Counted from the stretch's first letter, positions 1,364-63,128 are shown. The stretch is 64,000 bases of DNA from a virus (IMGVR_UViG_3300028833_000119:1-64000); one strand, 5' to 3'. The notes: a model not told the origin generated them from the letters alone. Numbers and translations are program-made.

Positions 1364-2389
1364 TTATAAACACAAAGCTGCATACATGTCATCGAAGCCG
1401 TCGCCATACAGATTGATGTAAGTATTATATGTTACTTTCACATCACTGTGTCCCAACAGCTTCGAAAGGATCTTAATGTCGATCCCTTTGTAATAGCAAT
1501 TCGTTGCGAATGTATGCCGGAAAACGTGTGCCCCTCGATAGGGAACGTTGGATTCCTTGCACATCTTCTTAATTGTACGAATCAGAACAGGATATTCAAG
1601 ACGTTTGTCTATACCAAACACAAATTCGCTGGACGCTCGCTTTTTCAATATGTTGAGTATAGCTGTTGCTCTTACATTAAGAGGTATAGTACGAATACTC
1701 GCGTCAGTCTTCGGCGTGTCCTGAACATATGCTTTTGATGGCAGGTGAGGATTGACAACGGTTGCACATACATGACAGCGATGTTTATCAGTATCCACAT
1801 CACTCCATCGAAGGGCAAGTGCTTCGCCGGATCGCAAACCTGTCTCAATCATAAAAGCAACACACAGTACAGCGTTTTGATCAGAGTGTGTTTCGATATA
1901 ATCCTGTAACCTGCGCTGTTCTTTTTCATTATATGCCAGAACTTCGCGTGGCTTTTTGATTATCTTCTGGTTTGGCATATCAACTTCCTGCGCAGGATTG
2001 TCTGGGATAATTTTTAGCGACACGGCTTTGCGAAGCGACGCACGAAGCAACTCCAATTGTTTTTTTATTGTACTGAAACTATACCCTTCGTTCGTGATCT
2101 GATTGATATAGAATTGGATATCAAGCGGTGTTACATCGCATACACGTTGCTGTCCGATTGGATATCTGGCGAGCGATTCGTTTGACCCTGTGAGCCTGTC
2201 ATATGTTCCAGATTTGACTTCGTTCTTTTTAAATAGATCCAGCCAAAGCGAAATGTACGTGTAGAGACTGATTGTGTTATCCATAATTAGAGCTCCTTTA
2301 CTGGAGCCTTGCGGTATATTGTAGTTGTCAAAGTTCGCAGCATCTACCTTATTTGAAGTATATAAATTAGCAAAATGATTGTCAAGCAT
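1364..2389 (-). CDS. int: Tyrosine integrase
   Basis: TGLRSGEALAL, HVFRHTFAT and LGHSDVKVTYNTY catalytic motifs (R-H-R-H-Y), preceded by a SAM-like N domain. Confidence 0.95.
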   Translation of the reverse strand: MLDNHFANLYTSNKVDAANFDNYNIPQGSSKGALIMDNTISLYTYISLWLDLFKKNEVKSGTYDRLTGSNESLARYPIGQQRVCDVTPLDIQFYINQITNEGYSFSTIKKQLELLRASLRKAVSLKIIPDNPAQEVDMPNQKIIKKPREVLAYNEKEQRRLQDYIETHSDQNAVLCVAFMIETGLRSGEALALRWSDVDTDKHRCHVCATVVNPHLPSKAYVQDTPKTDASIRTIPLNVRATAILNILKKRASSEFVFGIDKRLEYPVLIRTIKKMCKESNVPYRGAHVFRHTFATNCYYKGIDIKILSKLLGHSDVKVTYNTYINLYGDGFDDMYAALCL

Positions 2390-2966
2390 ATGAAATATCT
2401 CCTGACATAGATATAACTACTTGTTCTGCATTTAAATGTTTCGCACAAAGTTTGTCGATAAGTATTGACATAGGAATATTATATTTTTCACATATTTCAT
2501 CTATTGTTAATTGTTCTCCAAGTATATTGTATATTTTTTTATTTTTGGAAAAACAAACAGGTGTTGATACTGCGTCGATAAATGACATACCTTTATTTAA
2601 CCTCTTGTATAATGTAGCTGGTCTTATTTTGTATTCATCGGCCCACTCTGCTACAGTTTTAGTTTCTCCATTAAATGTAATATATTTACAATTCGATCTG
2701 TTATTACAATTCTTTTTGTGTGTAACAAAACGACAATTATCTGGAGTATAATTTCCATTATTATCAATTCTGTCGATATCTAATCCGGGGTGATATCCAT
2801 TTTCTATCGCCCATTTTTCAAATTCTCTAAAATGTTTCCATTCAGGCGAAATAACTATTCCTCTTCCACCATATCGAGGATATGCTTTTCTGTTTTTGTT
2901 GTAACAACGTTGTTTTATTCCATAATACATTTGTTCAAGTTTTGATTTATGCATTTTATCCTCCAA
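2382..2966 (-). CDS. HNH homing endonuclease
   Basis: YYGIKQRCYN...YPRYGGRGI...LDIDRIDNNGNYTPDNCRF; visibly AT-rich relative to its flanks. Confidence 0.9.
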   Translation of the reverse strand: MEDKMHKSKLEQMYYGIKQRCYNKNRKAYPRYGGRGIVISPEWKHFREFEKWAIENGYHPGLDIDRIDNNGNYTPDNCRFVTHKKNCNNRSNCKYITFNGETKTVAEWADEYKIRPATLYKRLNKGMSFIDAVSTPVCFSKNKKIYNILGEQLTIDEICEKYNIPMSILIDKLCAKHLNAEQVVISMSGDISYA

Positions 2967-2969
2967 CTA

Positions 2970-3010
2970 AAACGCCCGGTCAGCTTCGTGCCGACCGGGC
3001 TTATTTTTTT
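2970..3010. terminator. Bidirectional terminator ending the long leftward operon
   Basis: gcccggtc...gaccgggc hairpin with T runs on both strands. Confidence 0.7.
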
Positions 3011-3195
3011 TATTCAACTTGTAACTTCTGCTGTTTGTCTCGTTTTCGCGAAAGCTTATCGTCCACCTTGGCAGCTTTTCTATTTGCCTTGCAAGAGTTA
3101 CAGTTTCTTCGATTCTTGCAGAACCAACAACCGTCCTGCCCGAGCCAATACCAATGCGGCATCGACGGCCTTGGTTTACGTTTTGCTTTGCCCAT
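3010..3195 (-). CDS. Small Cys-rich hypothetical protein
   Basis: MGKAKRK start; CWFC...CNSC; basic tail. Confidence 0.6.
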   Translation of the reverse strand: MGKAKRKPRPSMPHWYWLGQDGCWFCKNRRNCNSCKANRKAAKVDDKLSRKRDKQQKLQVE

Positions 3196-3403
3196 ATTTT
3201 TTCTTCCGCTGGTTCCACGAATCGATTGCTTCCTGAGCAGACGCACACCATCCGCTGGCAGCGCCGCAACCACCGTCACGGTAATCGCATACAACCATGT
3301 ACTTTATTGTAAACCGTTCCGGAGCCTTACGCGGAAGCACAACGACTTTCGGATATGGAAACGCACAGAACGGACATCTGCGCAGTTCTTTATTATTCAT
3401 CAA
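3176..3403 (-). CDS. Lar-family restriction alleviation protein (Zn ribbon)
   Basis: LRRCPFC...VVC...CGA...EAIDSWNQR pattern. Confidence 0.7.
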   Translation of the reverse strand: MMNNKELRRCPFCAFPYPKVVVLPRKAPERFTIKYMVVCDYRDGGCGAASGWCASAQEAIDSWNQRKKKYGQSKT

Positions 3404-6129: not shown

Positions 6130-6146
6130 TTCCGTTCCACCGCCTG

Positions 6147-8359: not shown

Positions 8360-8554
8360 TCACCGGCTTTCCTGCAATGCGTTTGTATAACGTTTGTCAG
8401 AATCCAATGGGCATCTATAACGGATATAATATCCGTCACAATCATCGACTTGAACTTTCAGAATGTCGCAAACAGATGTCCAATCATCTACTGACATATC
8501 CCACGTTTTGTAATGCGGACATTCTGTAGTGCAATCCAAAGGAAAGCATTTCAT
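8360..8554 (-). CDS. Cys-rich hypothetical protein
   Basis: CTTECPHY...RCPL; operon-packed. Confidence 0.55.
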   Translation of the reverse strand: MKCFPLDCTTECPHYKTWDMSVDDWTSVCDILKVQVDDCDGYYIRYRCPLDSDKRYTNALQESR

Positions 8555-10106: not shown

Positions 10107-10643
10107 TCAGTCGTCACCCTTTTTGTACGGATCGTCGATCAGCCCCTGTTTTATCAGCCATGCAATGCCTACAGCAACGGCGTCAGATTCATCATCGCAT
10201 GCATATTCCTGTTTTCCGACGAACTGTTCCAACGCTTCGGCAACTTCATTCTTTTCTGCAGAAGCATCATTTGTAATTTTCTTCTTAACAGTAACAGCTT
10301 CTATTTCCTGAAACTGGCGCTGCCCGAATGCCCATGCATACAAATCAGAAACACCGACAACACGATTCAGGATTGATAACACTTTCCCGCTGGCAGACGT
10401 TCCGCTCTTACGGAGAGCTTCTTCACGGACCAGCTCTGCATCCGGATGCGCTGTCAGCAGTCTGCGTAGTTCGGCTGCGATCTCAGACAATACTTCTCCA
10501 TGACATTTTTTCTTTCCGGCATAAGTCTTGTTATTGATATTGCTCAATTCCTACACGGAAACTGTGCGGTCGTCCGGGCTGTATCGAAGAACGGCAAACC
10601 CTGGACGGCGCATGGAAAAATCACAGGCGATGATTTCAGTCAC
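10107..10643 (-). CDS. ruvC: RuvC-like Holliday junction resolvase with in-frame TAG at 10551-10553
   Basis: GTG start coupled to the upstream TGA; MTEIIACDFSMRRPGFAV (first catalytic Asp) then TVSV*ELSN; downstream VREE and DESDAVAVG motifs. Confidence 0.85.
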
Positions 10644-20223: not shown

Positions 20224-20436
20224 TCATTCTTTAACTTCTTTAACGGAAAGAACCTTCCCCAAACAATTTTCGATATTTCCTGTCACAATTTCTTTTATGC
20301 GCTCAAAGGTTTCGTTTTCATCGCATGGCTTGTATTCGATTTCAATTACGATTTTCATAATACCTTGCATCGCATTCGCTACAGAAATAATCCGTTGCTG
20401 GACATCTTGCCCAGCGATTCTTTTTACTGTATTCAT
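20224..20436 (-). CDS. Hypothetical protein
   Basis: Operon-packed ORF. Confidence 0.55.
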   Translation of the reverse strand: MNTVKRIAGQDVQQRIISVANAMQGIMKIVIEIEYKPCDENETFERIKEIVTGNIENCLGKVLSVKEVKE

Positions 20437-20459
20437 AATTAATTCTTTCTAATTTTTCA

Positions 20460-23400
20460 TCACACAATCGTATATTGGTCCATCCAGTTTTCCATGACGC
20501 CAGGTTTACCATACGCTTCCTTCTGCTGCCACCTGTCAAGGCGAATAATATTGCCGGCTTTCAGCGGATTCGCGGCGAATGTTTTTTTTAGCACCTTCAT
20601 CATGCCGACATTGCCGGTAGTCAGTGACTGCATACGAATTTTCGGAGAATACTTTTCGTCCACTTCGAGGACAGCATAGCATCCTTTGTACGCCTCCGGA
20701 AGTATCGTCATTGGTGCGCCAAGCAGCTCACACTCATAGCGAACCACTTCCAGCGGATCGTCCTTGTCAACCATGGCATGCTGGTTGTCCGATTTAGTGT
20801 CGAACATACCGGACAAAAAACCATTGACCACGGAACTGTCTCCAGTCTCGATGGCGATCAGTTCATTCATTCGCTTCTGCTGGGATGCCAGCACAAGCGT
20901 TGTTTTAAAACAATGGGCGCCGTTATAAAACTCATCGTACAACCACAACAACCGTTTGATTGTGCCGAACTCCCGGAAGTAATCCAGCTTGATCAGCTTT
21001 TCAATGACAGCGGTATTCAATGCGCCTGGATACAGCGTCATGTCGCGGAGGAGTTCAACGAACGTACCATACTCACGATTCTTCATATTCCAGAGCGCTT
21101 CGGCATCCTTGAGGCCGACGCCCTTGATGGACGAGAGCGCATCACTGATCGTGTGCTCAACCGGATCAATACAGAACGTGCGGTTATCTTGGCGGAACTT
21201 CGGTTTGGTCATCCGGATACCACGGACTTTTGCCATTGTACGTCCTGTGTTAATATCGTCATCATTGGCGGCGTTCTTCAGGTAAGCAGCGATGAACTGC
21301 TCAGGATGATGATGGCGTAGATAACCACACATATATGACAACAGGCTGTATCCTACTGCGTGGTTATAATTGAAGCTGTACTCACTGGAATCCTCGATGA
21401 CTTTCAGGAATTCTTTTGCTTCTTCCTCTGCTTCTTCTCGCGGCTTATCAGAATTTTTACAGTAACCGTCAAGAATCTCAGGCATTGCTTTGTCAATCTT
21501 GTCGCGCTTCTTCTTAGATATCGCACGACGGATGGTGTCGGCGTATGAAGCAGACAGGCCGCAAACCTTTTGTAGAAATTCGATGACCTGTTCCTGATAG
21601 CAACAGAATCCATAGGAGTCCCAGAAGATTTCATCAATCTGTTTTGTTGGATTCTTGTGCCGTTTCCTCGCAAATAACTGATCACGATAAGACGCACTGC
21701 CAGGGCGGAGAGCAGCGTTCACAACAGTAATCTCTTCGATACTGCGAGGTTTAAACTTTTTAATAGAGTCAGAAGCAAAGTCAGATTCAAACTGGAATAC
21801 GCCGCTTGTGTCATTACAGATATCGTCCCATACATCCTTGTCACAGAAGTCTATTTCATTCATACGAGGGTAGGGAAGACCAAGCAGTTTATATGTGTCG
21901 CTGATAACCTGAACCGTCTTCAAGATTAACAGATCGTATTTCACAAGATTGACTGTGCTGGCTTCATTCATATCAATGAGCAAGCAACGTTCGCCATCCT
22001 TGTTAAACACTCCCCAGTTTTCTTCGAGCGGTTCGCAACAGATGACCATGCCAGCTGGGTGAACTGACTGTGAAACACGAGTACCAACCATTGCATTCTC
22101 ATAATAAAAAAGATCCGGGTATTTTTTACGGGTAGTATCCTGGTCTGTTTTATATTCTTTTTTGATTGCCTGCAGTTTCAGAGGATTATATGGATTCTTA
22201 TGGTCGAACTTATATTTTACTTTATCCATTCGACCATTCTCTTTAAACTTCTCAGGAAAGTGTTCTCGTTCCCACATAATCCCAAGACCGCCACCACAGT
22301 CATCAATAAACGAGAGGTCGGCAATCGTACCATATGCAGCGACCCTGGCACATTTATCGGCACCAAACTTTGAGATGATATATTCGAAGATTGCAGGACG
22401 ATCGCTTTCAATACAGTCCTCGTCAACGTCTGCCAGACTGACGCGTTCACTGTTACAGAACCGGCTGAAGTTCGTATGCCACTGAACAGGATTCAAGTCT
22501 GTAATACCAGTAACATACGCGACACGGGAACCGCTGACAGATCCACGGCTTGGACCAATTGGCTTACCGGTATCACGGCACCAGTTAATGATCTCGTGCA
22601 TGGAAAGCATGAACCCACCCATATTTGTCTGATGGAACGCATCAAACTCTTCTGTGATATCACGGCGAAATTCTTCTTCCTGCTCCTTTGGAATCACGCC
22701 GGATTCAATTTTCTCATCGAGCATCTTCCATGTAACTTCATGAAGTTTTTCTTCGTCAGCTTCAGGAGATCCGTACAGCACAGGATACTTTGGACGCTTA
22801 TCCAGTGACCAGTCTTCAACAAGATCGGCCATTACATTTGTGTTTTCAATAGCATCCATGTAAACACCGCGAGGCAATGCATCCTGTTTTTCATATGCAT
22901 CGATCAGTTCATCATAATTCTTCCATGTCATATCCCAGCCATCTTCGTTGTATTTTTGTTCCTTATACTCTAGTAATACATCTCTTGCCTGGGCTTTTAT
23001 TATAGAAGATGAATGAGTATCTGTACCGGCAATCAGCGGTATACCTGTCTGCTGAGACAGCTTTAATAACCAGCGGTTATAATCTTTCTGATCCTGCACA
23101 TTATGGTGCTGGATCTCAAGATAATCAAACGCACGAACAATCTCCATATATCTCGGATCTGTATGTTCGATACGGTTGAGAGGCGAGGCAAGACATGCAC
23201 TCGTCTTAATAACATTACTGGAAATATTCAGGAGCTGGTCTATACTTATTCTCGGCGAATAATAGAATTGTTCAGGCTGAGTCGCGAGATTCATCAGGCG
23301 ATTAATCTCATGAAACCCTTCTTTATTACGGGCGAGGAGACACACATGCATATTATCTCTGACCTTTGGATCGAGAGAATATGTGACATATGCTTCTACA

Positions 23401-23594
23401 CCAAAGATAAATTTTATACCTTTGCTGTCGCAATAATCTTTCTTCTCAACCCAGGAACGCGGAAGGCCGTGCTCTGTTGACCCAATGGCTTTCATGCCCT
23501 GTGCAACAGCAAGATCTACATATTCAGAATATTTTGAACAGCTATCAAGAAGCGAAGAATCAGAATGAAGATGGTAACATACAAAATTACCCAC
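20460..23594 (-). CDS. dnaE: DNA polymerase III alpha subunit (family C)
   Basis: GTG start with GGAGGA RBS; PHP domain HLHSDSSLLDS, TEHG, GTDTH; GPSRGSVSGS; ADVDED catalytic motif; FNYNHAVGY; HhH SSIKGVG. Confidence 0.95.
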   Translation of the reverse strand: MGNFVCYHLHSDSSLLDSCSKYSEYVDLAVAQGMKAIGSTEHGLPRSWVEKKDYCDSKGIKFIFGVEAYVTYSLDPKVRDNMHVCLLARNKEGFHEINRLMNLATQPEQFYYSPRISIDQLLNISSNVIKTSACLASPLNRIEHTDPRYMEIVRAFDYLEIQHHNVQDQKDYNRWLLKLSQQTGIPLIAGTDTHSSSIIKAQARDVLLEYKEQKYNEDGWDMTWKNYDELIDAYEKQDALPRGVYMDAIENTNVMADLVEDWSLDKRPKYPVLYGSPEADEEKLHEVTWKMLDEKIESGVIPKEQEEEFRRDITEEFDAFHQTNMGGFMLSMHEIINWCRDTGKPIGPSRGSVSGSRVAYVTGITDLNPVQWHTNFSRFCNSERVSLADVDEDCIESDRPAIFEYIISKFGADKCARVAAYGTIADLSFIDDCGGGLGIMWEREHFPEKFKENGRMDKVKYKFDHKNPYNPLKLQAIKKEYKTDQDTTRKKYPDLFYYENAMVGTRVSQSVHPAGMVICCEPLEENWGVFNKDGERCLLIDMNEASTVNLVKYDLLILKTVQVISDTYKLLGLPYPRMNEIDFCDKDVWDDICNDTSGVFQFESDFASDSIKKFKPRSIEEITVVNAALRPGSASYRDQLFARKRHKNPTKQIDEIFWDSYGFCCYQEQVIEFLQKVCGLSASYADTIRRAISKKKRDKIDKAMPEILDGYCKNSDKPREEAEEEAKEFLKVIEDSSEYSFNYNHAVGYSLLSYMCGYLRHHHPEQFIAAYLKNAANDDDINTGRTMAKVRGIRMTKPKFRQDNRTFCIDPVEHTISDALSSIKGVGLKDAEALWNMKNREYGTFVELLRDMTLYPGALNTAVIEKLIKLDYFREFGTIKRLLWLYDEFYNGAHCFKTTLVLASQQKRMNELIAIETGDSSVVNGFLSGMFDTKSDNQHAMVDKDDPLEVVRYECELLGAPMTILPEAYKGCYAVLEVDEKYSPKIRMQSLTTGNVGMMKVLKKTFAANPLKAGNIIRLDRWQQKEAYGKPGVMENWMDQYTIV

Positions 23595-24237
23595 AGTATT
23601 TCCTCCTGTGTTTATGCGTTTGTTCTGATAATGCACGTTCGACTGACCAGCCATATATAACTATCCGTCTTCTGATTGTATCTTTACGGATGCCAGTAAT
23701 TTCAGACCATTCCTGGATAGTATGTGTTTCACCATTATAGGTTAATAGGTGATTAGACCTCATATTGTTACATTGCTGCTTTTGTGTATGCCATGCACAA
23801 TTTTCGGGAGAATAATTACCATTTGTATCGATGCGATCAATAGTACACTGATACTTTGGAGCGGAATCATCATATCCATGTGAATATGCCCATTCTTTGA
23901 ACAGTAAATAATTGTCCCATTCTTTACATACTTTTATTCCCCTTGCACCATACCATTTGTATTGCGGAGAGTTTACATTATTGCATCTGTCTTTAATTCC
24001 ATGCCAAACACCATATAATCTATCATCGTGTCTTGCATTACGGACATGATCTGGTCTTACACACCCACAACATTTACTGGTTCCGGTTCTGACACTTCTT
24101 CCTTCAACAATCTTTTCTTTTCCACAAAGCAAACAACGACACAAAAAAGTGGCAGATCCCGATTTGCTTCTGCCAACTTCTTTAATTACATACCAATTGT
24201 TAATTGTTTGCCCAGTAATGTCTTTTACATTACCCAA
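23587..24237 (-). CDS. HNH homing endonuclease
   Basis: KDITGQTINNW...FLCRCLLCG...CCGC; YGVWHGIKDRC...YGARGI...TIDRIDTNGNYSPENC; TTG start with AAAGGA RBS. Confidence 0.88.
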   Translation of the reverse strand: MGNVKDITGQTINNWYVIKEVGRSKSGSATFLCRCLLCGKEKIVEGRSVRTGTSKCCGCVRPDHVRNARHDDRLYGVWHGIKDRCNNVNSPQYKWYGARGIKVCKEWDNYLLFKEWAYSHGYDDSAPKYQCTIDRIDTNGNYSPENCAWHTQKQQCNNMRSNHLLTYNGETHTIQEWSEITGIRKDTIRRRIVIYGWSVERALSEQTHKHRRKYCG

Positions 24238-24244
24238 TGTTATA

Positions 24245-24532
24245 TTATCCTTTCTTCGCCCACTGCACCTGCACATGCTTTTCAAGAACGTCTTCATAGA
24301 TCTCAGGATATTCCATTTCAACTGCCTTATCCATCACCAACTCGGTTCCATAACCGAACGCCTTGTCACATTTCGGACACAAGAATTTTGCAAGCGAAAC
24401 CTGATAACCATATGCCAGTCGGTCATCCGTTATATCGTAACCACGATACCAACTATGGCAGTACGGGCACTGCACAGCAATATGACGAATTGGAGCCAAC
24501 TCGTATTCGACACGGACATTAAATTTATTCAT
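24245..24532 (-). CDS. Zn-finger hypothetical protein
   Basis: VQCPYC...LCPKC. Confidence 0.6.
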   Translation of the reverse strand: MNKFNVRVEYELAPIRHIAVQCPYCHSWYRGYDITDDRLAYGYQVSLAKFLCPKCDKAFGYGTELVMDKAVEMEYPEIYEDVLEKHVQVQWAKKG

Positions 24533-50104: not shown

Positions 50105-50283
50105 ATTTCACACCTCCTTATGCCAAAGCATAACAAATTCTGCAAAATTCCGCAATGGATTTTCCGCTCCACGCAGGGGAATTCCGCATTAGTGTAGAAT
50201 TCCCCTATGGGGAACGGGCGTGGAATTCTCCACGCTCCAAATTCCGCTATTCAATTTTCCAAGATAGGCTCCAGATTCTGTTA

Positions 50284-50814
50284 TCAAGCAGCCATTTCCT
50301 TCATGGCGATGGCGACCTTCAGCTCGTCCACCTGATCGTCCGTCAGTCCCTTAATCCACTGGTCAACGCTCACGTTCTTGACCTTCTTAACCTCGGACTT
50401 CTTCCCCTTCGGGGAAGCCTTCTTCGCCTTCGGAGCGGTCGGAGCCTTCGGCTCTTTGTAGTAAACCGGACGGCTCGCCTTTTCTTCCCAACCGCCGTTG
50501 AACCAGCTCCGCAGGGTGGCGATGCTCTTGATCTTGTTGACCTTCATATGGTCAACGGTGGAGTAGGTGTCCATGCTGACGATCAGGTTCAGGAACAGAC
50601 CCCAGCGATCTTCGGGAGTCTTGGCGCCACAGCACTTCTCCATGAGGGTCTTGACGGTCGGATGGTTCACAAACTGCGGAGCGAGAATCTCACCCTTGAC
50701 AAGTTTGATCAGACCGTTGTACACCCTGAAGGTGTCGTTGTCCCACATAGCCTTGGTGAATCCGGCGGGACGGGTTGCTTTCTTCGTGGCGTTCGTGTTG
50801 GTGTTGGTATTCAT
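50284..50814 (-). CDS. First early gene; Lys/Ala-rich hypothetical protein
   Basis: RBS AAAGGGG; strongly biased codon usage; PKAPTAPKAKK linker. Confidence 0.7.
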   Translation of the reverse strand: MNTNTNTNATKKATRPAGFTKAMWDNDTFRVYNGLIKLVKGEILAPQFVNHPTVKTLMEKCCGAKTPEDRWGLFLNLIVSMDTYSTVDHMKVNKIKSIATLRSWFNGGWEEKASRPVYYKEPKAPTAPKAKKASPKGKKSEVKKVKNVSVDQWIKGLTDDQVDELKVAIAMKEMAA

Positions 50815-50829
50815 GGTATACCCCTTTCT

Positions 50830-51685
50830 CTGGCATAGTGCCAGCTCTGATTATTATGGGCAATATCGCCCTATCGAACGTCCCCGGCGGGGGCGCTCAA
50901 GAGGACGGACGGTCGCTGTGCAAGGCGACAACGAGCAAACGCAGGTTGTCAGCACGTTGACCGTCAGTTGATCTCTGTGGTTCATGCAAGGGTAGTCACC
51001 GTCACGTCCTTCGGACGGCGGACGGCTTGCCTTCTTCGATGCAGCGATTTGGGCAGACTATCCCCCTCATGGTTCACGGTCGTGGTGGCTTGTCCGGACG
51101 GACTCCATGCTTTTACCTCCTTCTCGTCCTCCATCCCGGTGTCATCCCCACCTTCAGCCTGTACCGCCCTGCATGGCAGTAACTCTCAGATCCCGATCTC
51201 ACCATGCCCTGTCACGGGGAAAGAAGGGCGCAGCAAACACACCTTCCCTCCGGAGCATGGTTACTCCTCGGTGCTGATTCTCGGTCGGTCTATAGTACTC
51301 CCATACTCACATCCAGTTGCAAGCTGAAGGGCGACCGCCCTACACCGAAACCCTGTGCCATTCGTACACTGTCCTACTCTACTTTCGGACTGCCTACTCT
51401 ACTTTCGGCATGGTACTACTCCGGTACATTCCTCCGATGCAGTCATCCTGCTTTCTGGGGCTACTCAACCTCATCCCGAAGGCTATGGTACTGCTGTGCT
51501 GTGAGCAAACAACGAACACACAGTCAGTTGTCAAGGTACAGTCGTTGAGTAAACGGTGACGCTAGGTGGTAGGGAGTATCTGCAACCCTACTCTTGATCC
51601 AACCTAGCAGATCTTGACGGTCTTACACTGAGAGTGGCTTAGAATCACGGTTTCTCTCAGAACCCTTGTGCTCTCGATCCGCCGT
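50830..51685 (-). ncRNA. Candidate large structured ncRNA or 5' leader (~850 nt)
   Basis: No coding-like ORF; many short GC hairpins with cTTCGg/GAAA loops; purine-rich on the minus strand; lies directly downstream of a sigma70-type promoter. Confidence 0.4.
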
Positions 51686-51716
51686 CACTATGCAATGTTC
51701 GTATCCGGTTTGTCAA
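51686..51716 (-). promoter_or_regulatory. Sigma70/sigmaA-type promoter for the leftward early arm
   Basis: TTGACA-aaccggatacgaacattg-CATAGT on the minus strand. Confidence 0.55.
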
Positions 51717-51872
51717 TAGGGAATTTTACAGTTAGGTAAAACTAACTTGATATAAAAAGGCTAAAACATATTGAAAAATCTACAGAAAAAAACTTAAAAT
51801 TTTTTTGAAATTTTTTGAAAGTTAGCCGGTTTTTGGCTTGTGAACAAAAACAGACCAAAGTCTAAAAAAAGG

Positions 51873-51937
51873 CGAACGTTCGGGTCTAGAGGCGAACATT
51901 CGATCAAAAAACAGGCTAAAAAACAGGTGAATGTTCG
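51873..51937. promoter_or_regulatory. Three copies of the palindrome YGAAYRTTCG (putative operator)
   Basis: cgaacgttcg at 51873, cgaacattcg at 51893, tgaatgttcg at 51928. Confidence 0.45.
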
Positions 51938-51989
51938 TGTTTTTTGTACGTACAACTTGATTCGGTACCTAACAATCGAAAAATTAGCC

Positions 51990-52138
51990 TGTGGAAAAGT
52001 TATCCACAGGGAAGAATGACGTAAAATAAGGCGTTTCGTTCATATTGAAACAGTAGTTATCCACAGGAAAAAGGGATCAAAAAAAGTTATCCACACATTT
52101 TCCACAGGTGGTTGTGGATAATATAAAAGTTATCCACA
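51990..52138. promoter_or_regulatory. DnaA-box cluster (putative replication origin)
   Basis: Perfect TTATCCACA at 52000, 52057, 52087, 52113 (reverse) and 52130; one-mismatch boxes at 51990 (reverse) and 52098; AT-rich flanks. Confidence 0.85.
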
Positions 52139-52505
52139 ACACCACAAGATATAGTGGTTCTTTAGCTAACTAAAGCAAAGAAGCAAAAACCCGGAACACA
52201 AGGAAATACAAGCTTTGCAGGGTTTTGACGATACAGAATACACAACTAAATATTGTATTTTATTGTATTTTACGTTTGAACCATACGAAAACACACCCAA
52301 ACCCCCATGCCTATCTTTTCTACAACTCGATTTTAAAACGAGATCACAGCACAGTAGCCGGGATCCTCCGCGAGAAACCATAAACATTTTCGGCAAAAAT
52401 AAAAACAAACCAATGAAAACCTTGCGAGATATGAGTGCTTATCATAAAAGTTTGATACTATTTTGATACCTTCTTGCGGGGCGAGGAAAATAAATTTCCA
52501 CTACA

Positions 52506-52536
52506 GGTAGACAAACAACCTCGAAATGTTCCCATA
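52506..52536 (+). promoter_or_regulatory. Phage-specific promoter motif, copy 3
   Basis: GGTAGACAAACAACCTCGAAATGTTCCCATA upstream of the rep gene. Confidence 0.65.
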
Positions 52537-52746
52537 TATAGTGAGGGGCAGTTCAGCCAGCAACTCGCCCGGTTCGCCAGCGAGGTCCGGCTAACGACAC
52601 TGACGATGTCCGGCCATCTTGGATTTCTCCCTGTGTGGCGAGATGTCCGGTTCGGCTGCGGGGCTATCTAATGATATCTAAACATATATATACATATACC
52701 TATTTATTTATCATTAATACATCGTATCTAAAAGTGAGGTTTTTCA

Positions 52747-54102
52747 ATGGATGAATACGTTGTAATTCAACAAATTATGAACCTTTACTGTTTCGATATG
52801 ACGAGGTATCGGTACATGACTCCTGATGGCGAGTACCACACCGTAAAACTTCCGTATGACGAGACGCTGATCTATGAGCACCTCGAGGGGAAAAAGACAG
52901 TGTGCGTGTATGCGCGTGAACGGAACACTATCTTCCACACGTTCGATGTAGACGAGTCGGATCCTATTAAGGTTCATCTAGTCATAGACAAGCTTGTTGG
53001 GATTGGAATACCTCGCGACAAGGTCTACGTTTCGACTTCCGGAAACAAGGGATATCACATCGACCTGTTTTTTGATGCGCCGGTGTGGAAGTCTGACGTA
53101 GAGGGAGTGTTCAACTATGTTGTGCGTGATCCTGTGATTGCGGCTATCAGGATGGAGTGCAAACCCGGACGGAAAGGCGCGATCAAAATCCCGCTTGGAA
53201 TCAATTTCAAAACAGGGCGCCGCTGCTGGTATGTAGACCGGGAGACACTGGAACCGATCGAGCGGAATGATTATGTATTTGAAATTCAGAAGATGAGCGC
53301 GGCGGACTTTGCGCAGATTGCGTATATCTGCAATAAAGAAAAGAAAAAGGAAGATATTCTGCTTGCGAAAGCAAATCAAAGGAAGCCGCAAAAGCCCAGG
53401 AAGTTTGTTGCGCGAAACGAGCCGACGATCACCGCGCCCGGGCAGCGGCACGACAAGATGCTTCAGAAAGCGGTGTGGCTGCGAGCGGTCGGCGGGGATG
53501 CTGATGATATTTATGAAGAGTTGATCAAATGGATTAATCGTCAGGACACATCGCTGATAGGAAGTTCGTGGAAAGAAATTGATGATGATGCGAGCCGGAT
53601 TGCGCGTGACGTGGCAAGACGGTACGAGGTGAAGGTAAAGCAAAAGAATAATATTGTTCGTCGTACTGATGAGATTGGCAGAAATGATATGGAGGTTATT
53701 CTCGCGGCGCCGACAAAGACAGCTCGTAAGGCTGCTTTTTTAATTTGTGCATATTGCAGGGCGTTTGGTGTATGCAGTATGGGATATGATCGGATGGCGC
53801 AAATTCTTGGCGTTACATACCAGACTGCGTTCAATGCAGTAAAAGCGTTGATTGAATGCGGTGCAATTGAAAAGAAGAAAGTTGGCGGTGTTGCTTATTC
53901 TGATGGCAAGCCTGTATTGGTTGCGAATGAATATGCTTGGATAACAAAACAAAGCGATGGTGGCATAAGGTTTACGATCAGTGAAGTAAGCTCTGATTTT
54001 CCGAGGGTTTATTATCGTGCGCTGTGCGATATATTTGATCAAGATATACTTGAGAAACGATTGACGAGATCTGAACTGGAGGAACTAAAAAAATGGAAAT
54101 GA
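52747..54102 (+). CDS. AEP-superfamily primase-polymerase/replication initiator with PriCT-like and wHTH domains
   Basis: EHLEGKKTVCVY, FDVD (motif I), STSGNKGYHIDLFF (motif II), IKIPLG; PGQRHDKML; C-terminal GYDRMAQILGVTYQTA HTH. Confidence 0.8.
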   Translation: MDEYVVIQQIMNLYCFDMTRYRYMTPDGEYHTVKLPYDETLIYEHLEGKKTVCVYARERNTIFHTFDVDESDPIKVHLVIDKLVGIGIPRDKVYVSTSGNKGYHIDLFFDAPVWKSDVEGVFNYVVRDPVIAAIRMECKPGRKGAIKIPLGINFKTGRRCWYVDRETLEPIERNDYVFEIQKMSAADFAQIAYICNKEKKKEDILLAKANQRKPQKPRKFVARNEPTITAPGQRHDKMLQKAVWLRAVGGDADDIYEELIKWINRQDTSLIGSSWKEIDDDASRIARDVARRYEVKVKQKNNIVRRTDEIGRNDMEVILAAPTKTARKAAFLICAYCRAFGVCSMGYDRMAQILGVTYQTAFNAVKALIECGAIEKKKVGGVAYSDGKPVLVANEYAWITKQSDGGIRFTISEVSSDFPRVYYRALCDIFDQDILEKRLTRSELEELKKWK

Positions 54103-55170: not shown

Positions 55171-55502
55171 ATGCGAAGGAATTGAAAGAGAAGATCAGTG
55201 AACAGCAGTTCAAGCTGAAGAAAGCGACGACGAGCGGGATGATGGTTGCGCAGGAGACAGACCGTTTGCGGAATATCCTGGTAAACAGCCTGGACGACAT
55301 TCTTGAGGCGCTTGATATGGCGATTTCTGCGGAGGACAGGATTGAATGCCTGACTGTGGAGATCGAATCTGCGGACGCGGAGCTGCAGGAGAAGGACGAC
55401 GAGATCAAGGCGCTGAAGGAAGAACTGGAAAAACCGAACGGTAAGAAGGTTGCCGGGAAACGTGCGAAACTCCCGGTAGTTGACGAATCCAGTGTCGAAT
55501 AA
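55167..55502 (+). CDS. Coiled-coil hypothetical protein
   Basis: Heptad pattern; 4-nt overlap with the preceding gene. Confidence 0.65.
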   Translation: MNAKELKEKISEQQFKLKKATTSGMMVAQETDRLRNILVNSLDDILEALDMAISAEDRIECLTVEIESADAELQEKDDEIKALKEELEKPNGKKVAGKRAKLPVVDESSVE

Positions 55503-55524
55503 AGTTTACAGTGAACTTTCATAC

Positions 55525-55908
55525 ATGCCGCTGAGTGAGGAAAGAGTCGTCCAGAAACTCATTCGCGACAGGTCGGTATAGGACCAATCTTTCTGGCCCA
55601 TGTTTGATCCGTCCGGTATATTGAGCACGGACGGCGTGTTTGCGCTGAACGAGGACGTACTGTGTATTTATGCGGACCTTGATTCGCTGATTGAGCGAGC
55701 GGGATTAAGTGAGCAGGAGCGCCTGACAGTGGACCTGCTGATGCAGGGATACACGCTTCCGGACATTGCTGACCATTACGGGAAGTCAAGGCAGAACTTC
55801 GAGCTTTTTCTGAAGAAGGCTTGCAAGAAGATTGTAAAGCGCAACAATGCCGACTGGGAAGAATGCACGGGTGCGCGGATCGACGACGGCGAGTGGGAGA
55901 GTGAATAA
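55525..55908 (+). CDS. Sigma region-4-like HTH protein with in-frame TAG at 55579-55581
   Basis: MPLSEERVVQKLIRDRSV*DQSFWPMFD...; AGLSEQERLTVDLLMQGYTLPDIADHYG HTH. Confidence 0.65.
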
Positions 55909-55911
55909 TAT

Positions 55912-56073
55912 ATGTGGTTAACAATACTTGCGGCGAGCAGCTGGTGTCTGTTTGCGTATATGGTACCGGTTGTCTGTGCGATTGTGTGGATACGCAGGCG
56001 CCGTGACAAGACTGAAATAATCCAGGAAGGGGACTGGATGTCGGATGACGGCATGCCGGTGGATGAAGAATGA
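55912..56073 (+). CDS. Small membrane protein
   Basis: MWLTILAASSWCLFAYMVPVVCAIVW followed by RRRR. Confidence 0.6.
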   Translation: MWLTILAASSWCLFAYMVPVVCAIVWIRRRRDKTEIIQEGDWMSDDGMPVDEE

Positions 56074-56339
56074 CGAGTTATGAGTTTGAAGTTGCGGCGA
56101 AGAATGCCGTGATTGAAATGCTGGCGAAGCGCGGGATTGACGCGAAGATTGAAGACTTGCAGCTGACGTGGTTTACACATTTGCTTGGAAACAAGAAGTG
56201 TATGATCTGGGGAGAGCCGATGGCGAATCTATATGCGGAGATCACGTATGCGCGTGACAGCCAGATAACGTATTGTGATCTTTACCAGAAGCTGGATCAT
56301 ATGGATCTGCACGATTGGGAACTGGATTTTGAAGCGTGA
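56070..56339 (+). CDS. Conserved phage hypothetical protein
   Basis: WFTHLLGNKKC...YAEITY...YCDLYQK. Confidence 0.7.
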   Translation: MTSYEFEVAAKNAVIEMLAKRGIDAKIEDLQLTWFTHLLGNKKCMIWGEPMANLYAEITYARDSQITYCDLYQKLDHMDLHDWELDFEA

Positions 56340-56340
56340 T

Positions 56341-56607
56341 ATATATGGGGTAGGCAAGAACAGGGAGGTCTGGGCGTGTGTAGGCGAGCGCGTAGCTGAA
56401 GCGGCAGACTGATAAATGCCAAGAAGAAAATACAGCCCGTACGTCAGAACACATCGGGGCCAACCCGACGGGATTCGGAGGACGCAAGTGCCGAAGATAA
56501 ACCTGACACAAGGCGTTTTGACATCTGACAGGGATGCGTGTGATTAAGTGGCGGTGGAGAAAGATCGGTACGATAAAGCGCCGGCGCGACTGCACACCCC
56601 CATATCT
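56341..56607 (+). ncRNA. Candidate ~265 nt structured ncRNA
   Basis: Intergenic; atatgggg (56343-50) pairs with ccccatat (56598-605); gtgtgtag pairs with ctgcacac; GC-rich interior. Confidence 0.5.
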
Positions 56608-56679
56608 TTCAAAAAACCTGACAAGCACGAGGAGGTTAAGGCTACTGCACCAGGCAGCTTTTTCAGTCGTGCGTATCGA

Positions 56680-56739
56680 AAGACGCTAACAGCAAAAATT
56701 ATACAATAACAATTGGAATGTTACTATGCATGCGTCTTG
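56680..56739 (+). repeat. AAGAC(G/C)C...CAGCAAA...G(C/G)GTCTTG RNA repeat, copy 1 (internal taaca-atTGGaa-tgtta arm)
   Basis: 7-bp closing stem, conserved CAGCAAA and a 5-bp/7-nt anticodon-like hairpin. Confidence 0.7.
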
Positions 56740-59408: not shown

Positions 59409-59583
59409 AGAACTTCTTGAAGATCTTGAGACATGCACAGGGCCTTGCGGACGGATGTGTATGTCATGTCCGGAAAGCAGGTATGTTGCAGAAATCCGCG
59501 AAGTGCTTGTAACGCTTATGGATGAAAACAAGAAATTGCGCGAGGCGCTCAGAGGATATACAGGGGAGGTTGATTTTTTATGA
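59398..59583 (+). CDS. Small Cys-containing hypothetical protein
   Basis: CTGPCGRMCMSCP. Confidence 0.55.
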   Translation: MTPEELLEDLETCTGPCGRMCMSCPESRYVAEIREVLVTLMDENKKLREALRGYTGEVDFL

Positions 59584-59678
59584 TCAGTGCATGGTGGCTG
59601 CTGTTGATTGTTCCCGCGTCGGCGTTGTTGGGTATTTTTTGTATCGCTTTATGTTCGGCATCGAGGACAGATGACTGA
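59580..59678 (+). CDS. Small membrane peptide (DUF3789-like size)
   Basis: MISAWWLLLIVPASALLGIFCIALCSAS. Confidence 0.55.
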   Translation: MISAWWLLLIVPASALLGIFCIALCSASRTDD

Positions 59679-59731
59679 CATGCTTGCATATTTGCCGATT
59701 TATTTAATTATATAAGAGGGAAGGGATTATA

Positions 59732-60415
59732 TTGGCGACAGGACATAAAATTATCGAACCTTCCGGCAGGACTTCTGTTGCGATGATCGATAACCATGAA
59801 AGTGCCGTTGCGTATGTGAACGGCATATAGGAGAAGTGGTCCGGTTATTGCGATAAAAATTGGTTGAACGATTCCGGTGATGTGTATACGCCGGAATTGA
59901 AGATCAAGTATTTTCTTGACGGACTTGCTTATTTGCTGCTGATCGGAAACACGGATGGCATAGAAACGAACTATAAACGTGTGATGAATGCGAAGCGTGA
60001 GATTCCGGCGTCAAGCTGTCCGAGTGAAATCGAGAACCTGTTGTATGGAACCGGATGCTCGACGGATTACGCAGAGGAAGAGGAAGCCCAGTTCCGGGAT
60101 ATGCTGGACAGGCTTGACAGCAAAGCGGAGCCTTATGAATGCAGGAAAACAAAACGAGACAGGAAATGCAGCCTGTTTGCGAAGAAACTGCAGAAAGGCA
60201 TACCGGACGGAGACTGGTATCTTGTTGATACGGAAGGAAGATTCAGGGTCGGCGACCAATGCTATATTATCGAGGATAACGCTGTACAGTACCAGCCGGT
60301 CCAGACGGAGTACGGCAATTATTACGCGATGGATAAAGTCCTGTATGCTGGCGGCAAATTCTACGATATGAATTATGACGAAGTGATTGTCCTTCAAGTC
60401 GGGACGGAGACGTAA
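59732..60415 (+). CDS. Conserved hypothetical protein with in-frame TAG at 59828-59830
   Basis: TTG start after the GAGGGAAGGG RBS; MATGHKIIEPSG...AVAYVNGI*EKWSGYCDKNW continues in frame into ORF 59864-60415. Confidence 0.7.
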
Positions 60416-60428
60416 AACCCGTCTGCAT

Positions 60429-60535
60429 AAGACGCACACAGCAAACCATATACATATTAAAAACTTCTTAATAATAGTTTTCCGGCAACGCCTCCTGACA
60501 GTGCGGACCAGTGCCGGCCTTTTTATTGCGTCTTG
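60429..60535 (+). repeat. AAGAC(G/C)C...CAGCAAA RNA repeat, copy 2
   Basis: aagacgca/tgcgtctt stem with internal hairpins. Confidence 0.7.
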
Positions 60536-60541
60536 TCTTAT

Positions 60542-60615
60542 TGCCTGTTAGCTCAGTCCGGAAGAGCGTCGCACTGTTAATGCGAATGTCACAGGATCGA
60601 AGCCTGTACAGGCAG
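60542..60615 (+). tRNA. tRNA-Asn (GTT), CCA not encoded
   Basis: Acceptor tgcctgt/acaggca; anticodon arm tcgca-ctGTTaa-tgcga; T arm acagg-atcgaag-cctgt; G73. Confidence 0.9.
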
Positions 60616-60713
60616 CGAATTGCGGTATAAGTTTTCGGACTTATATCTGGGTGGCCGGATGCGTCCGGCTTCCTGCACCAAGCTGTGCGAAACATCCGCC
60701 GAACGGCGGACAT

Positions 60714-60793
60714 GGCCGTGTATGCAAAATGGAAAAGCAGTGGCTTCTAAACCCATGGAATTATTCTGGGTTCGACTCCCAGCTCGGCCACCA
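60714..60793 (+). tRNA. Amber suppressor-type tRNA (anticodon CTA, 60747-60749) with Leu-like body and encoded CCA
   Basis: Acceptor ggccgtg/ctcggcc, A73, CCA; D arm tgc-aaaatggaaaa-gca; anticodon arm gtggc-ttCTAaa-cccat (C31:C39 mismatch); ~9-nt variable region; T arm ctggg-ttcgact-cccag. Confidence 0.8.
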
Positions 60794-60856
60794 AAGACGC
60801 TTGCAGCAAACTTGAAGCATCAGACTGTTAATCTGAAGAAGCTAATCGGCGTCTTG
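60794..60856 (+). repeat. RNA repeat, copy 3, with tRNA-Asn-like anticodon arm
   Basis: aagacgc/gcgtctt stem, CAGCAAA and tcaga-ctGTTaa-tctga. Confidence 0.75.
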
Positions 60857-60866
60857 CTACATTTTG

Positions 60867-60928
60867 AAGACCCATACAGCAAACAACTGATGAAGCTACA
60901 GAGGATGATGAGCAGAAAGCGGGTCTTG
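60867..60928 (+). repeat. RNA repeat, copy 4 (compensatory GACCC/GGGTC stem)
   Basis: aagaccc-atacagcaaa...gggtcttg. Confidence 0.7.
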
Positions 60929-60948
60929 GATATTTCAGCCAAGAGGAA

Positions 60949-62169
60949 GTGAAGGGATTGAGCAGGTCTATTGAATCGCTCAATGTAAAGGAAAAAGCGA
61001 GCCTTGTCCAGGAGATGCTGGACAAGAAAACCGGGGTTTTGGATAAAGACTGGTGCGACATGGTCATGGATTACGATCTGGATTGTAATCCGGAAACCCT
61101 GCGGAAAGCCGGGGTCGGCGTAAAGCTTGCAAGCGACGCAGGAATGTGTTTCCCGATTGACGGCGCTGTAACCCGCGACGTTATGGATGGTTATGTTGAG
61201 CGCCAGAAACTCTATGACCTTCAACGCGGAATCAGGAAAGACCTGCGCGAACAATCCAGAAGCGAGCTGCTTCGGGAGATGATCTGCAACGCGATTAAAG
61301 CGCTGCCGAAGATCAATGTGTCTGTATGCCAGGAGAGAGTTGAACATGAAGCCGACAGAAGCCGCGAGCTGGTTGTCGGGATCGGTGATTTCCATTACGG
61401 CGCCAGGTTTACGGTGGAAGGCCTGTACGGCGAGGTGCTGAATACGTATGATCCGTATGTGTTTGATGAACGGATGGGAATGCTGATTCACGAGGTTAAA
61501 CAGATTGCGAAAACACACAAACCGGAAATGATTACCGTGATGATTGTTGGCGATATGCTGGACGGAATGATTCATACATCGCAGCTGACGAGGCTTGAAT
61601 ACGGCGTTGTCGAGAGCGCGATGCGGCTCAGTGAATATCTTGCGCAGTGGCTTGCCGAACTGAATCGCGAGACAGGCGTCCCGGTTCGTGTGTACGCTGT
61701 CCGTGGAAACCACGGCGAGATCAGGCCGCTCGGAACCAAGGCAGGACAGTTCCCGGAGGAAAACCTGGAGCGGGTTGTTATGCATTACCTGGCCATGCGT
61801 TTTGAGGACAACGACGTTATCCTCGTAATGGACGATGACGCGCCGATGAGCCGCGTTGTTGATGTGCTGGACTACAACTTCCTGCTGCTCCATGGACAGG
61901 GAAACGACATTGAAACAATCGCCCGTGACTGCCAGACACTCTATAATAAGAAGATAGATGTGTTTATGGTCGGGCATTTACATAAAAACCAGACGTTCAC
62001 CGCAGGAATGGGACGGAACGGCAATGTGCTGATCGAGCGGATCCCGAGCCTGTGCGGAATGGATCCCTACGCGCAAAGCAAAGGATACGGGTCTCCGCCA
62101 GGTGCGACTGTGATCGTGATGGAAAAAGGATACGGACGCAAGTGTGTGTATCCGATTGTATTAAGCTAA
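60949..62169 (+). CDS. Calcineurin-like metallophosphoesterase
   Basis: GDFHYG, GDMLDG, GNHG, LLHG and GHLH motifs. Confidence 0.88.
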   Translation: MKGLSRSIESLNVKEKASLVQEMLDKKTGVLDKDWCDMVMDYDLDCNPETLRKAGVGVKLASDAGMCFPIDGAVTRDVMDGYVERQKLYDLQRGIRKDLREQSRSELLREMICNAIKALPKINVSVCQERVEHEADRSRELVVGIGDFHYGARFTVEGLYGEVLNTYDPYVFDERMGMLIHEVKQIAKTHKPEMITVMIVGDMLDGMIHTSQLTRLEYGVVESAMRLSEYLAQWLAELNRETGVPVRVYAVRGNHGEIRPLGTKAGQFPEENLERVVMHYLAMRFEDNDVILVMDDDAPMSRVVDVLDYNFLLLHGQGNDIETIARDCQTLYNKKIDVFMVGHLHKNQTFTAGMGRNGNVLIERIPSLCGMDPYAQSKGYGSPPGATVIVMEKGYGRKCVYPIVLS

Positions 62170-62261
62170 CGGTTGATATCAGAGCTGAATGAAGCTCGCC
62201 CGGGGAGATGCCTGCATCATCCCGGGTTTCTTTTTAATTACAGGAAACAGAGGTTTGAAGG

Positions 62262-63128
62262 ATGCCGAAAAAGAAAACGCCGGCAAAGCTGTGCGTCCGG
62301 TGCAACCGCATCCTGCCGCTGGAAAAGTTCAGCCCGAACAAACTCTGGGCTTCCCAGCAGTACAGGGATGCCTGGTGCACAGAATGCGCAAAAGAGTTTT
62401 GCAAAGATGAAGAAACAGTAAAGCGGTACTGCTTCGAGAACAACAGGAAATTTAAAGAAGTTGCATGGGAAGCCGCAAGGAAGAAAGCGGCATACGACCT
62501 GAACAACAACAAAGTATACCTTAATCCAATGACCACTCCGGAAAAGAAAAAAGAAGAGGAAGCCTTGGCACAAGCCAAGGCTTTTTTTAGTTTGAAGAAC
62601 AGCAACTACGCTTATGAGTACGAAGAGAACATCCATGTTGCGGACTCTACACAGGATGAAGTTGTGCATGAGTTTGTAGATGATAAGAACAAGCCTTATT
62701 ATGACAAGATATGGCAGGGCTGGTTCACGCCGGAGCAGGTTGAGTGGATGAATGAAAAGTATGTACAGTATTCAGAAGACTTTGTCCTTGACAACATCAA
62801 TATGCAGGACTATACGCGCAAGGTAATCAAGGCGTCACTGAATGCCGACCTTGCGGAGGACAGGATGCGTCGTGGGCAGGGGACTCCTGATGAGTACATG
62901 AAAGCGCAGAAAATTTTTGATGACCTCAGCAAGAGTTCAAACTTTGCGGCTTGCCGGAGAAAACCCGGCGAGAGCACAGGTATGGGATCTCTTGGTGAAA
63001 TTATCCTAAAGCTTGAGACACAGGGTTACCTTGATGAGAATCCTTATACGTTCCCTGATGATGATATCGACAAGGTGATTCAGGCTTATCAGTATACACT
63101 CGAATCAATCGGGATGGATATCAGATAA
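62262..63128 (+). CDS. Zn-finger protein upstream of terL (possible terminase small subunit/packaging factor)
   Basis: CVRC...WCTEC; stop codon overlaps the terL start. Confidence 0.6.
   Translation: MPKKKTPAKLCVRCNRILPLEKFSPNKLWASQQYRDAWCTECAKEFCKDEETVKRYCFENNRKFKEVAWEAARKKAAYDLNNNKVYLNPMTTPEKKKEEEALAQAKAFFSLKNSNYAYEYEENIHVADSTQDEVVHEFVDDKNKPYYDKIWQGWFTPEQVEWMNEKYVQYSEDFVLDNINMQDYTRKVIKASLNADLAEDRMRRGQGTPDEYMKAQKIFDDLSKSSNFAACRRKPGESTGMGSLGEIILKLETQGYLDENPYTFPDDDIDKVIQAYQYTLESIGMDIR

Follow-up and report, generated by a model that had tools for sequence, protein, structure and literature searches.

The stretch of DNA analyzed here, referred to as the window, comprises 64,000 nucleotides (IMGVR_UViG_3300028833_000119:1-64000) and forms the first 64 kb of a single linear IMG/VR virus record of 85,213 bp (G000), which is derived from an uncultured ruminant-gut phage. 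In this phage TAG is not used as a terminator, three conserved genes carry an in-frame TAG at codons 30 to 34, and a tRNA with the anticodon CUA, tRNA(CUA), is encoded 300 nt beyond the stop codon of one of them (Table 1). It is likely that the phage possesses in this tRNA its own amber suppressor, which most likely inserts leucine, that TAG has been purged from its stop codons, and that the three in-frame TAG codons serve as translational gates. The genes would end only in TAA or TGA because the suppressor would read through any TAG terminator. The purge had already been noticed in an earlier reading of the sequence (the original prediction), and that observation stands; its direct cause, the tRNA(CUA), had not been linked to it.

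TAG as a terminator and as a sense codon

Genes were called with two models that combine codon-usage log-odds with a bonus for the ribosome-binding site (RBS) and the start codon in a dynamic-programming scheme; one was trained on long open reading frames (ORFs) and the other trained itself while ignoring TAG. Over the whole record, the first model returned 145 genes (75 ending in TGA, 69 in TAA and one in TAG) and the second 140 (72, 67 and one, respectively). The sole TAG call of each model (8407-8529, plus strand; 71969-72112, minus strand) is a weak ORF of 40-47 amino acids on the wrong strand. It is thus confirmed that none of the roughly 139 genes of the 85-kb record, 72 with TGA and 67 with TAA, ends in TAG, and the same holds for the 120 counted within the window, as the original prediction had stated. 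Genes terminated by TAG at a normal frequency, which would have spoken against it, were not found when all 75 TAG-terminated ORFs of at least 40 amino acids were listed and inspected: each either is intergenic with a low score or shadows a well-supported gene on the opposite strand. A single one, at 50155-50838 on the plus strand, combines a positive score with real length; it is a shadow rich in Leu, Arg, Ser and Gly of the minus-strand ORF at 50284-50814, which has a normal composition and a weak homolog in the related loci L009/L010. A crude tiling by longest ORFs gives 10 apparent TAG stops, which proved false on inspection of each TAG-terminated ORF. The TAG at 2967-2969, which joins two ORFs in frame, lies within the T-tract of a terminator hairpin; it is non-coding, neither a sense codon nor a stop. 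The HNH endonuclease begins later, at ATG 2953 behind GGAGG.

The weight of this absence depends on how often TAG would be expected. TAG accounts for 10.8% of the stop triplets in all frames, 5% of those in the off-frames within genes and 17% of the intergenic ones, and for 15 of the 144 in-frame stops located upstream of gene starts (10%). TAG/CTA is the most depleted trinucleotide of the genome (observed/expected 0.43 relative to the dinucleotide expectation). Among phages without a CUA tRNA, TAG terminates 6 of 162 genes (3.7%) in the relative G005, which is 92% complete, 22 of 274 (8%) in distant relatives, whose loci of 7-12 kb were pooled, and 18 of the 81 annotated genes (22%) in the cultured Clostridioides phage LIBA6276. 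A binomial comparison with related phages, as proposed in the original prediction, gives the probability of finding 0 of 139 as 5e-3 at the frequency of G005, 8e-4 at 5%, 9e-6 at 8%, 1e-7 at 10.8% and about 1e-15 at that of LIBA6276. The depletion is therefore significant but weaker evidence than had been assumed, with 3.7-8% TAG in tRNA-free relatives, and on its own it is not decisive. When genomes are pooled, at most 4 of 434 genes end in TAG in three suppressor-bearing genomes, compared with 46 of 517 in tRNA-free ones (Fisher p = 5e-9).

The genes with an in-frame TAG are the three best upstream extensions in our own scan of the genome. In the RuvC-like gene, the TAG falls inside the region matched to Pfam RuvC (positions 3-147 of the 148 in the profile) and inside that matched to PHROG 159 (residues 13-179), and the catalytic N-terminal strand, IIACDFS, lies upstream of it; the same site is found in locus L018, and other relatives carry TAG at conserved leucine columns of this gene. 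The sigma-like gene starts at GTG 55492 rather than at 55525 or 55600, because its homologs begin with MSNKVYSELSY, which matches the window at that point, and a diverged goat-gut strain retains TAG GAC at the TAG site. The tRNA-adjacent gene has a strong RBS ahead of its TTG start at 59732, and the internal start has none. Its product had no Pfam or PHROG match, the atlas returned nothing for its natural homolog P0125, and the AlphaFold model (pLDDT 71, pTM 0.37) had no match in the PDB at E <= 0.001.

The segments preceding TAG are covered, in all three genes, by alignments to the N-termini of full-length homologs. In public protein sets each of the three families falls into a full-length group, in which the segment before TAG is covered, and a truncated group that starts after TAG; the latter is the signature of gene calls made under genetic code 11 on relatives in which TAG is likewise present. 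Contigs from RNA libraries, obtained in two runs of an independent sheep sample, cover 55400-56443, 59721-60438 and 60556-61000 with zero differences. Both plus-strand TAG codons and the tRNA are intact in these contigs and are therefore not assembly errors; the data, being contigs, cannot prove transcription, and the uncovered parts carry no evidence.

That TAG persists as a very rare sense codon, with only three occurrences, was also part of the original prediction, and it is borne out by these three robust sites, beside one ambiguous extra. At this fourth place (20435-20462), an ATG overlapping the stop codon of DnaE (TGATG) opens the sequence M-K-N-TAG, and the frame runs on into an ORF of 74 amino acids. 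It would be a coupling ORF of only three codons or else a fourth gene with a gate. The count of in-frame TAG codons beyond the window that had been suggested could be made for the structural genes at 63-85 kb, and it gave zero; the three TAG codons are confined to the resolvase, the sigma-like regulator and a protein with no assigned function. Genes for lysis may be situated in the 26% of the genome that the record lacks.

The tRNA(CUA) and the residue at TAG

TAG in this phage group most likely means leucine, as judged from the residues that align with it. The alignments were tallied over the non-shadow ORFs of de-duplicated related loci, since the unfiltered version was polluted by antisense shadows that produced signals for Y, K and Q. 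The majority residue at the 85 TAG sites is Leu in 46 cases, Lys in six, Ile in six and Gln in two. Counted by residue, Leu makes up 171 of 320 (53%), compared with a background of 8.6%, and Gln 12 of 320 (3.7%), which is its background level. In the RuvC genes of related IMG/VR contigs, TAG (#) stands in place of conserved leucines, as in AD#S#KRPGF and ADLSLKRPGF, HGQ#LDE and HGQLLDE, or IARE#KRY and IAxELRR. Leucine is likewise the top residue at TAG in the near-complete genomes G001 and G002 (15 of 34 aligned). Among 33 distinct DNA sequences of the tRNA-adjacent gene, the gate codon is TAG in 25 and CTG or CTT in eight, and it is never CAG. The glutamine meaning implied when the original prediction compared this phage with code-15 phages is thus not supported.

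In the tRNA(CUA) of the window, a U-U mismatch interrupts the 7-bp acceptor stem; the molecule further has A73, an encoded CCA, a standard T-loop (UUCGACU) and a 3-bp D-stem. ARAGORN labels it tRNA-Pyl, a label that stems from the CUA anticodon. A true tRNA-Pyl has a variable loop of 3 nt, a shortened D-loop without G18G19 and a 6-bp anticodon stem; these features are missing here, since G18G19 is present, the anticodon stem has 5 bp and the variable region is 9 nt long. A long variable arm together with A73 is the build of leucine and tyrosine tRNAs and not of tRNA-Gln, according to the identity rules. Every one of the 16 distinct syntenic CUA tRNAs of relatives that encode CCA carries A73. 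The D-stems measure 3 bp, and the variable arm has type II length in 11 of 19 distinct copies; in the closest relatives, L001 and L002, it forms stems of 4-5 bp. The matches to the 3′ part of the L002 tRNA in the phage collection are annotated tRNA-Leu only (29 of 29, E of about 4e-4). The window tRNA itself gave only weak partial matches in a BLAST search of phage records (E >= 0.05). Just three of the divergent suppressor tRNAs, that of the window among them, reach the Rfam threshold, and MAFFT with RNAalifold achieved no alignment of these divergent suppressor tRNAs, recovering only four pairs. Because its variable region is shortened to 9 nt, the identity of the window tRNA rests mainly on the protein alignments, which suggest that it most likely inserts leucine. 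A gene with a release-factor (RF-1) domain was not found in the partial 85-kb record. In one relative (L005:6766-6802), the abiF RNA motif of Rfam is matched at 40 bits (threshold 37) in the interval between the gated gene and the CUA tRNA.

The presence of the tRNA and of in-frame TAG go together. A CUA tRNA is located 130-320 nt downstream in 18 of the 19 TAG-bearing loci with enough flanking sequence, compared with none of the seven TAG-free loci (Fisher 1.2e-5). The tRNA-bearing genomes G001 and G002 have 26 and 16 TAG-containing genes, respectively, and almost no TAG stops; in the tRNA-free G005, reading through TAG brings no gain.

TAG is also retained as TAG. The tRNA-adjacent gene keeps it at the same codon among relatives whose proteins share 28-75% pairwise identity (median 50%), whereas the conserved leucine columns of the same alignment use three to four codons (CTT, CTG, CTC and TTG). 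In the sigma-like gene, TAG occupies one column in six relatives, among them L003, L005, L006, L008 and L011; L009 has CTG at this column and TAG at a nearby leucine column, and L011 has both. Similarly, the tRNA-adjacent genes of L011 and L058 have lost the gate at codon 33 and have a TAG at codon 17 instead. In G001 and G002 (loci L103-L114) most recoded genes contain just one TAG, and these codons concentrate towards the beginning of genes. Of the 18 in G002, 16 fall in the first quarter of the gene (Kolmogorov-Smirnov p = 6e-8), and many in both genomes are at codons 29-36, like those at codons 30, 33 and 34 of the window. The TAG load forms a continuum from 3 in this genome through 19-35 in G002 and G001 to 23-32 per 12 kb in the heavily recoded L032 and L034. 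Read-through of TAG raises the gene score by 21-34% in the latter two, in contrast with 0.1-0.2% in this genome, in agreement with the original prediction that the phage is unlike heavily recoded code-15 phages.

A proposed translational gate weighed against other explanations

Because ordinary leucine codons drift while TAG stays fixed, a regulatory gate is favored over a transitional state. Of the two possibilities raised in the original prediction, the regulatory one has gained from the finding that dozens of diverged relatives have kept TAG itself at the same codon, whereas the early-stage one is at odds with a codon fixed across proteins of 28-75% identity. Judged from these comparisons, the sparse TAG state is an old and stable one. 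The order of events in which the stop was lost first and the tRNA captured later fits the same data as the reverse order.

According to the proposed mechanism, transcription of the rightward unit would yield the gated mRNAs and the tRNA together. Before charged tRNA accumulates, translation would stop about 30 residues into each protein through the action of host release factor 1. The tRNA would presumably be charged by the host leucyl-tRNA synthetase (LeuRS), an enzyme that does not read the anticodon, and how much of the three proteins is made at full length would be set by the supply of phage tRNA relative to host release factor 1. The full-length sigma-like regulator, resolvase and tRNA-linked protein would consequently appear later. 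Such a gate might hold these proteins back until transcription of the rightward unit takes place, or might silence them during lysogeny (an integrase is encoded), when leaky transcripts would stay untranslated. We infer both the charging by host LeuRS with decoding of TAG in vivo and the timing or lysogeny logic of the gate. For the phage group as a whole, which is widespread in the ruminant gut, we lean towards the view that TAG, meaning leucine, is kept deliberately rare, with one TAG placed about 30-35 codons into selected genes and read by the phage tRNA only, so as to form a conserved checkpoint for a late sigma-like regulator, the resolvase and the tRNA-linked protein.

Several observations count against a leucine-inserting suppressor that operates gates. 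Where the three TAG codons of the window align with database homologs, glutamine is almost as frequent as leucine, with Q in the TAG column of 13 of about 37 full-length homologs. These glutamines probably arose by translating TAG under code 15, an explanation that is drawn from one near-identical pair, in which the public database protein P0125 has Q exactly where locus L052 (L052:1501-2217), whose translation is 98.7% identical to it, has TAG in its DNA. The window tRNA departs from a standard tRNA-Leu in its U6-U67 and C31-C39 mismatches and its short variable region, and among the 19 distinct syntenic tRNAs eight are of type I length. As TAG stops are rare throughout the group (3.7% in G005), the purge alone is modest evidence (P = 0.005), and the gene models behind the counts are home-made rather than a standard gene caller. 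Finally, simple co-transcription leaves out the RuvC-like gene, which belongs to the opposite arm and is 50 kb away from the tRNA.

The glutamines in database homologs would be expected if the tRNA(CUA) inserted glutamine and the phage were a lightly recoded member of the ordinary code-15 phages, and the literature on phages reports TAG-to-Gln and TGA-to-Trp recodings only. This is quite improbable given the absence of CAG among the 33 gate codons, the background level of glutamine beside 53% leucine in the tally, the A73 and often long variable arm that characterize leucine or tyrosine rather than glutamine tRNAs, and the P0125/L052 pair. Unlikely, though less so, is a transitional reassignment in which the stops were lost, the tRNA was captured and TAG is now spreading as a neutral leucine codon with no regulatory role; the continuum of TAG load across relatives would suit it, as would the depletion of a stop before recoding that has been proposed for phages in the literature. 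Neutral spread would, however, scatter TAG codons that are instead clustered near gene starts. Against it, too, TAG is held in 25 of the 33 distinct sequences of the tRNA-adjacent gene while leucine codons drift, and a gate lost at one column is replaced by a TAG at another N-terminal column of the same gene (L011/L058 and L009).

If the scarcity of TAG/CTA in the genome and its group were a compositional accident, the lack of TAG stops would have nothing to do with decoding; the low observed/expected ratio and the comparison with G005 would allow this. It leaves unexplained the three in-frame TAG codons in conserved genes and the tRNA(CUA), as well as the co-occurrence of TAG with the tRNA and the pooled difference in TAG stops, and is very improbable. 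The explanation to which we give the least credence is that the three TAG genes are nonsense pseudogenes or start internally and that the tRNA has a different role, such as interfering with termination in the host. Public code-11 calls do begin these genes after TAG. The segments before TAG are nonetheless conserved in protein sequence, including the catalytic strand of RuvC, TAG is present at the same codon across many independent assemblies, and in the tRNA-adjacent gene it is the upstream TTG that has the strong RBS. A natural suppressor tRNA that would gate three genes remains the preferred explanation.

Genomic setting and relation to known recodings

The record is about 74% complete (CheckV) with a GC content of 46%. 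The genes of the window are arranged in two divergent arms (Table 1). The closest cultured phages are large Clostridioides phages and SPbeta-like Bacillus phages, with only 27-39% protein identity. From these similarities a Bacillota host is plausible; the low-GC Firmicutes setting assumed in the original prediction is not established by a GC content of 46% and a distant similarity to Bacillota phages. A search of genome contigs for a host link returned just two short fragments of metagenome-assembled genomes, labelled Alloprevotella and Eubacteriales, and no host was assigned. The phage is common in gut metagenomes of sheep, goat and cattle, with near-identical DNA in data from about 15 studies. 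A scan of viral contigs with the single protein DnaE found nothing, and relatives were collected by alignment queries instead.

Table 1. Coordinates of the TAG-containing genes, the tRNAs and the arms of the phage genome
Feature	Position	Strand	Details
RuvC-like Holliday-junction resolvase, 181 amino acids	10107-10652	-	TAG at codon 34
In-frame TAG of the RuvC-like gene	10551-10553	-	Context GTG TAG GAA
Sigma-like (region-4 helix-turn-helix) regulator, 138 amino acids	55492-55908	+	TAG at codon 30; PHROG 3512 sigma factor, E 8.5e-9
In-frame TAG of the sigma-like gene	55579-55581	+	Context GTA TAG GAC
Conserved protein with no assigned function, 227 amino acids	59732-60415	+	TAG at codon 33; directly upstream of the tRNAs
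In-frame TAG of the tRNA-adjacent gene	59828-59830	+	Context ATA TAG GAG
tRNA, anticodon CUA (reads UAG)	60714-60793	+	ARAGORN; Rfam RF00005, 39 bits (threshold 29)
tRNA-Asn(GUU)	60542-60616	+	Neighbor of the tRNA(CUA); also present in L002 and L008
Ambiguous fourth TAG	20449-20451	-	Codon 4 of a small ORF if the start is ATG 20460 (overlaps DnaE stop); alternative ATG 20435 after the TAG
Window gene span	1364-63128		Two divergent arms; about 117-120 genes; TGA 68, TAA 52, TAG 0 (of 120)
Leftward arm	~1.4-51 kb		Integrase, Lar-like protein, two HNH endonucleases, RuvC, NrdD, RNA ligase, DnaE, primase-helicase, many small genes
Non-coding divide between the arms	51134-52747		1.6 kb, gene-free
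Rightward arm	52.7 kb onward		Archaeo-eukaryotic primase (AEP)-type primase-like gene, sigma-like regulator, two tRNAs, exonuclease, terminase-like gene, virion genes

The divide between the arms contains about 50 TAG/CTA triplets, which is much denser than the rest of the genome. The opening gene of the rightward arm (52747-54102) has a match (E 3.9e-9) to PF22548, the archaeo-eukaryotic primase domain found in the TOTE conflict system, and the last ORF of this arm encodes 2501 amino acids. On the minus strand, codon usage is atypical in two genes that resemble HNH homing endonucleases (PHROG 3377/374); one follows the integrase region (2382-2953) and the other is directly upstream of DnaE (23587-24321). 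Stop codon preference differs between modules: the leftward replication arm has 60 TGA and 40 TAA, and the virion genes (63100-85213) have four TGA and 15 TAA. In two sheep metatranscriptome-library runs, the short contigs covering 56414-56641 and 56612-56692 reach depths of 154 and 78, compared with 2-20 for their neighbors, and a junction that skips 56459-56589 is seen in both runs. The surrounding stretch, 56339-56713, holds only a weak ORF of 53 amino acids and may give rise to an abundant small RNA.

Recoding of stop codons by phage suppressor tRNAs is established, with crAss-like, Lak and other phages translating TAG as glutamine (Borges et al., bioRxiv 10.1101/2021.08.26.457843; Peters et al., PMC9523058). 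The published phage recodings that were found are TAG-to-Gln and TGA-to-Trp only, and one paper is explicit on this point; a phage code in which TAG means leucine is absent from the literature searched. The phage described here resembles code-15 phages in having a tRNA(CUA), in-frame TAG in conserved genes and no TAG terminators, in the standard code presumed for the host, and in that recoding has been proposed to regulate the translation of later genes. It differs in that TAG aligns with leucine, in its scant TAG load (three in 85 kb, with a score gain of 0.1-0.2%) and in the placement of TAG in a regulator, a resolvase and a protein with no assigned function rather than across structural and lysis genes. 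Density-based recoding screens require a gain of about 10% and would miss this phage, because just three TAG codons barely change the coding density or the score. In a standard-code relative of the Agate clade, 4 of 146 genes end in TGA, which may represent a precursor state (Borges et al., bioRxiv 10.1101/2021.08.26.457843). That example shares with the present phage a stop codon that is nearly abandoned and a matching suppressor tRNA; here, in contrast, TAG is already a sense codon at conserved positions and the state appears old.

Outside phages, TAG is read as leucine in chlorophycean mitochondria (NCBI table 16), chytrid mitochondria (PMC6131824) and phyllopharyngean ciliates (PMC11687900). 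The reassignment is the same and is likewise effected by a leucine-type tRNA with the anticodon CUA, but those codes are genome-wide and belong to organelles or cells, whereas here a virus imports one tRNA into a host that presumably still stops at TAG. Escherichia coli supP (Su6) is an amber suppressor tRNA-Leu with the anticodon CUA that is charged by LeuRS. This precedent of a tRNA-Leu body with a CUA anticodon shows that the proposed chemistry is feasible, although supP is a laboratory mutant of a cellular tRNA, whereas the phage gene occurs naturally, is conserved and encodes a tRNA whose body is divergent. In Streptomyces, the rare leucine codon UUA is read by one developmentally supplied tRNA-Leu, the product of bldA, and thereby gates regulators. 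The likeness lies in a few regulatory genes with one rare codon that depends on a single dedicated leucine tRNA; bldA, however, reads a sense codon of a cellular genome, whereas the gated codon here is a stop, so that failure to read it would lead to termination and not to stalling. A passage on UUA in the AdpA context is found in one source (PMC10732093).

If the leucine assignment is correct, TAG would have a second meaning in phages, leucine besides glutamine, and an annotation pipeline that renders all recoded TAG codons as Q would mistranslate this group, as the P0125/L052 pair exemplifies. Sparse recoding, with three codons in 85 kb, escapes tests based on coding density, and its signature is a missing stop codon together with a matching tRNA. 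Natural and diverse leucine-type amber suppressors may also be useful parts for work on the genetic code. The fixed position of TAG near codons 30-35 of a sigma-like regulator and a resolvase would make the proposal that phages recode in order to regulate translation directly testable.

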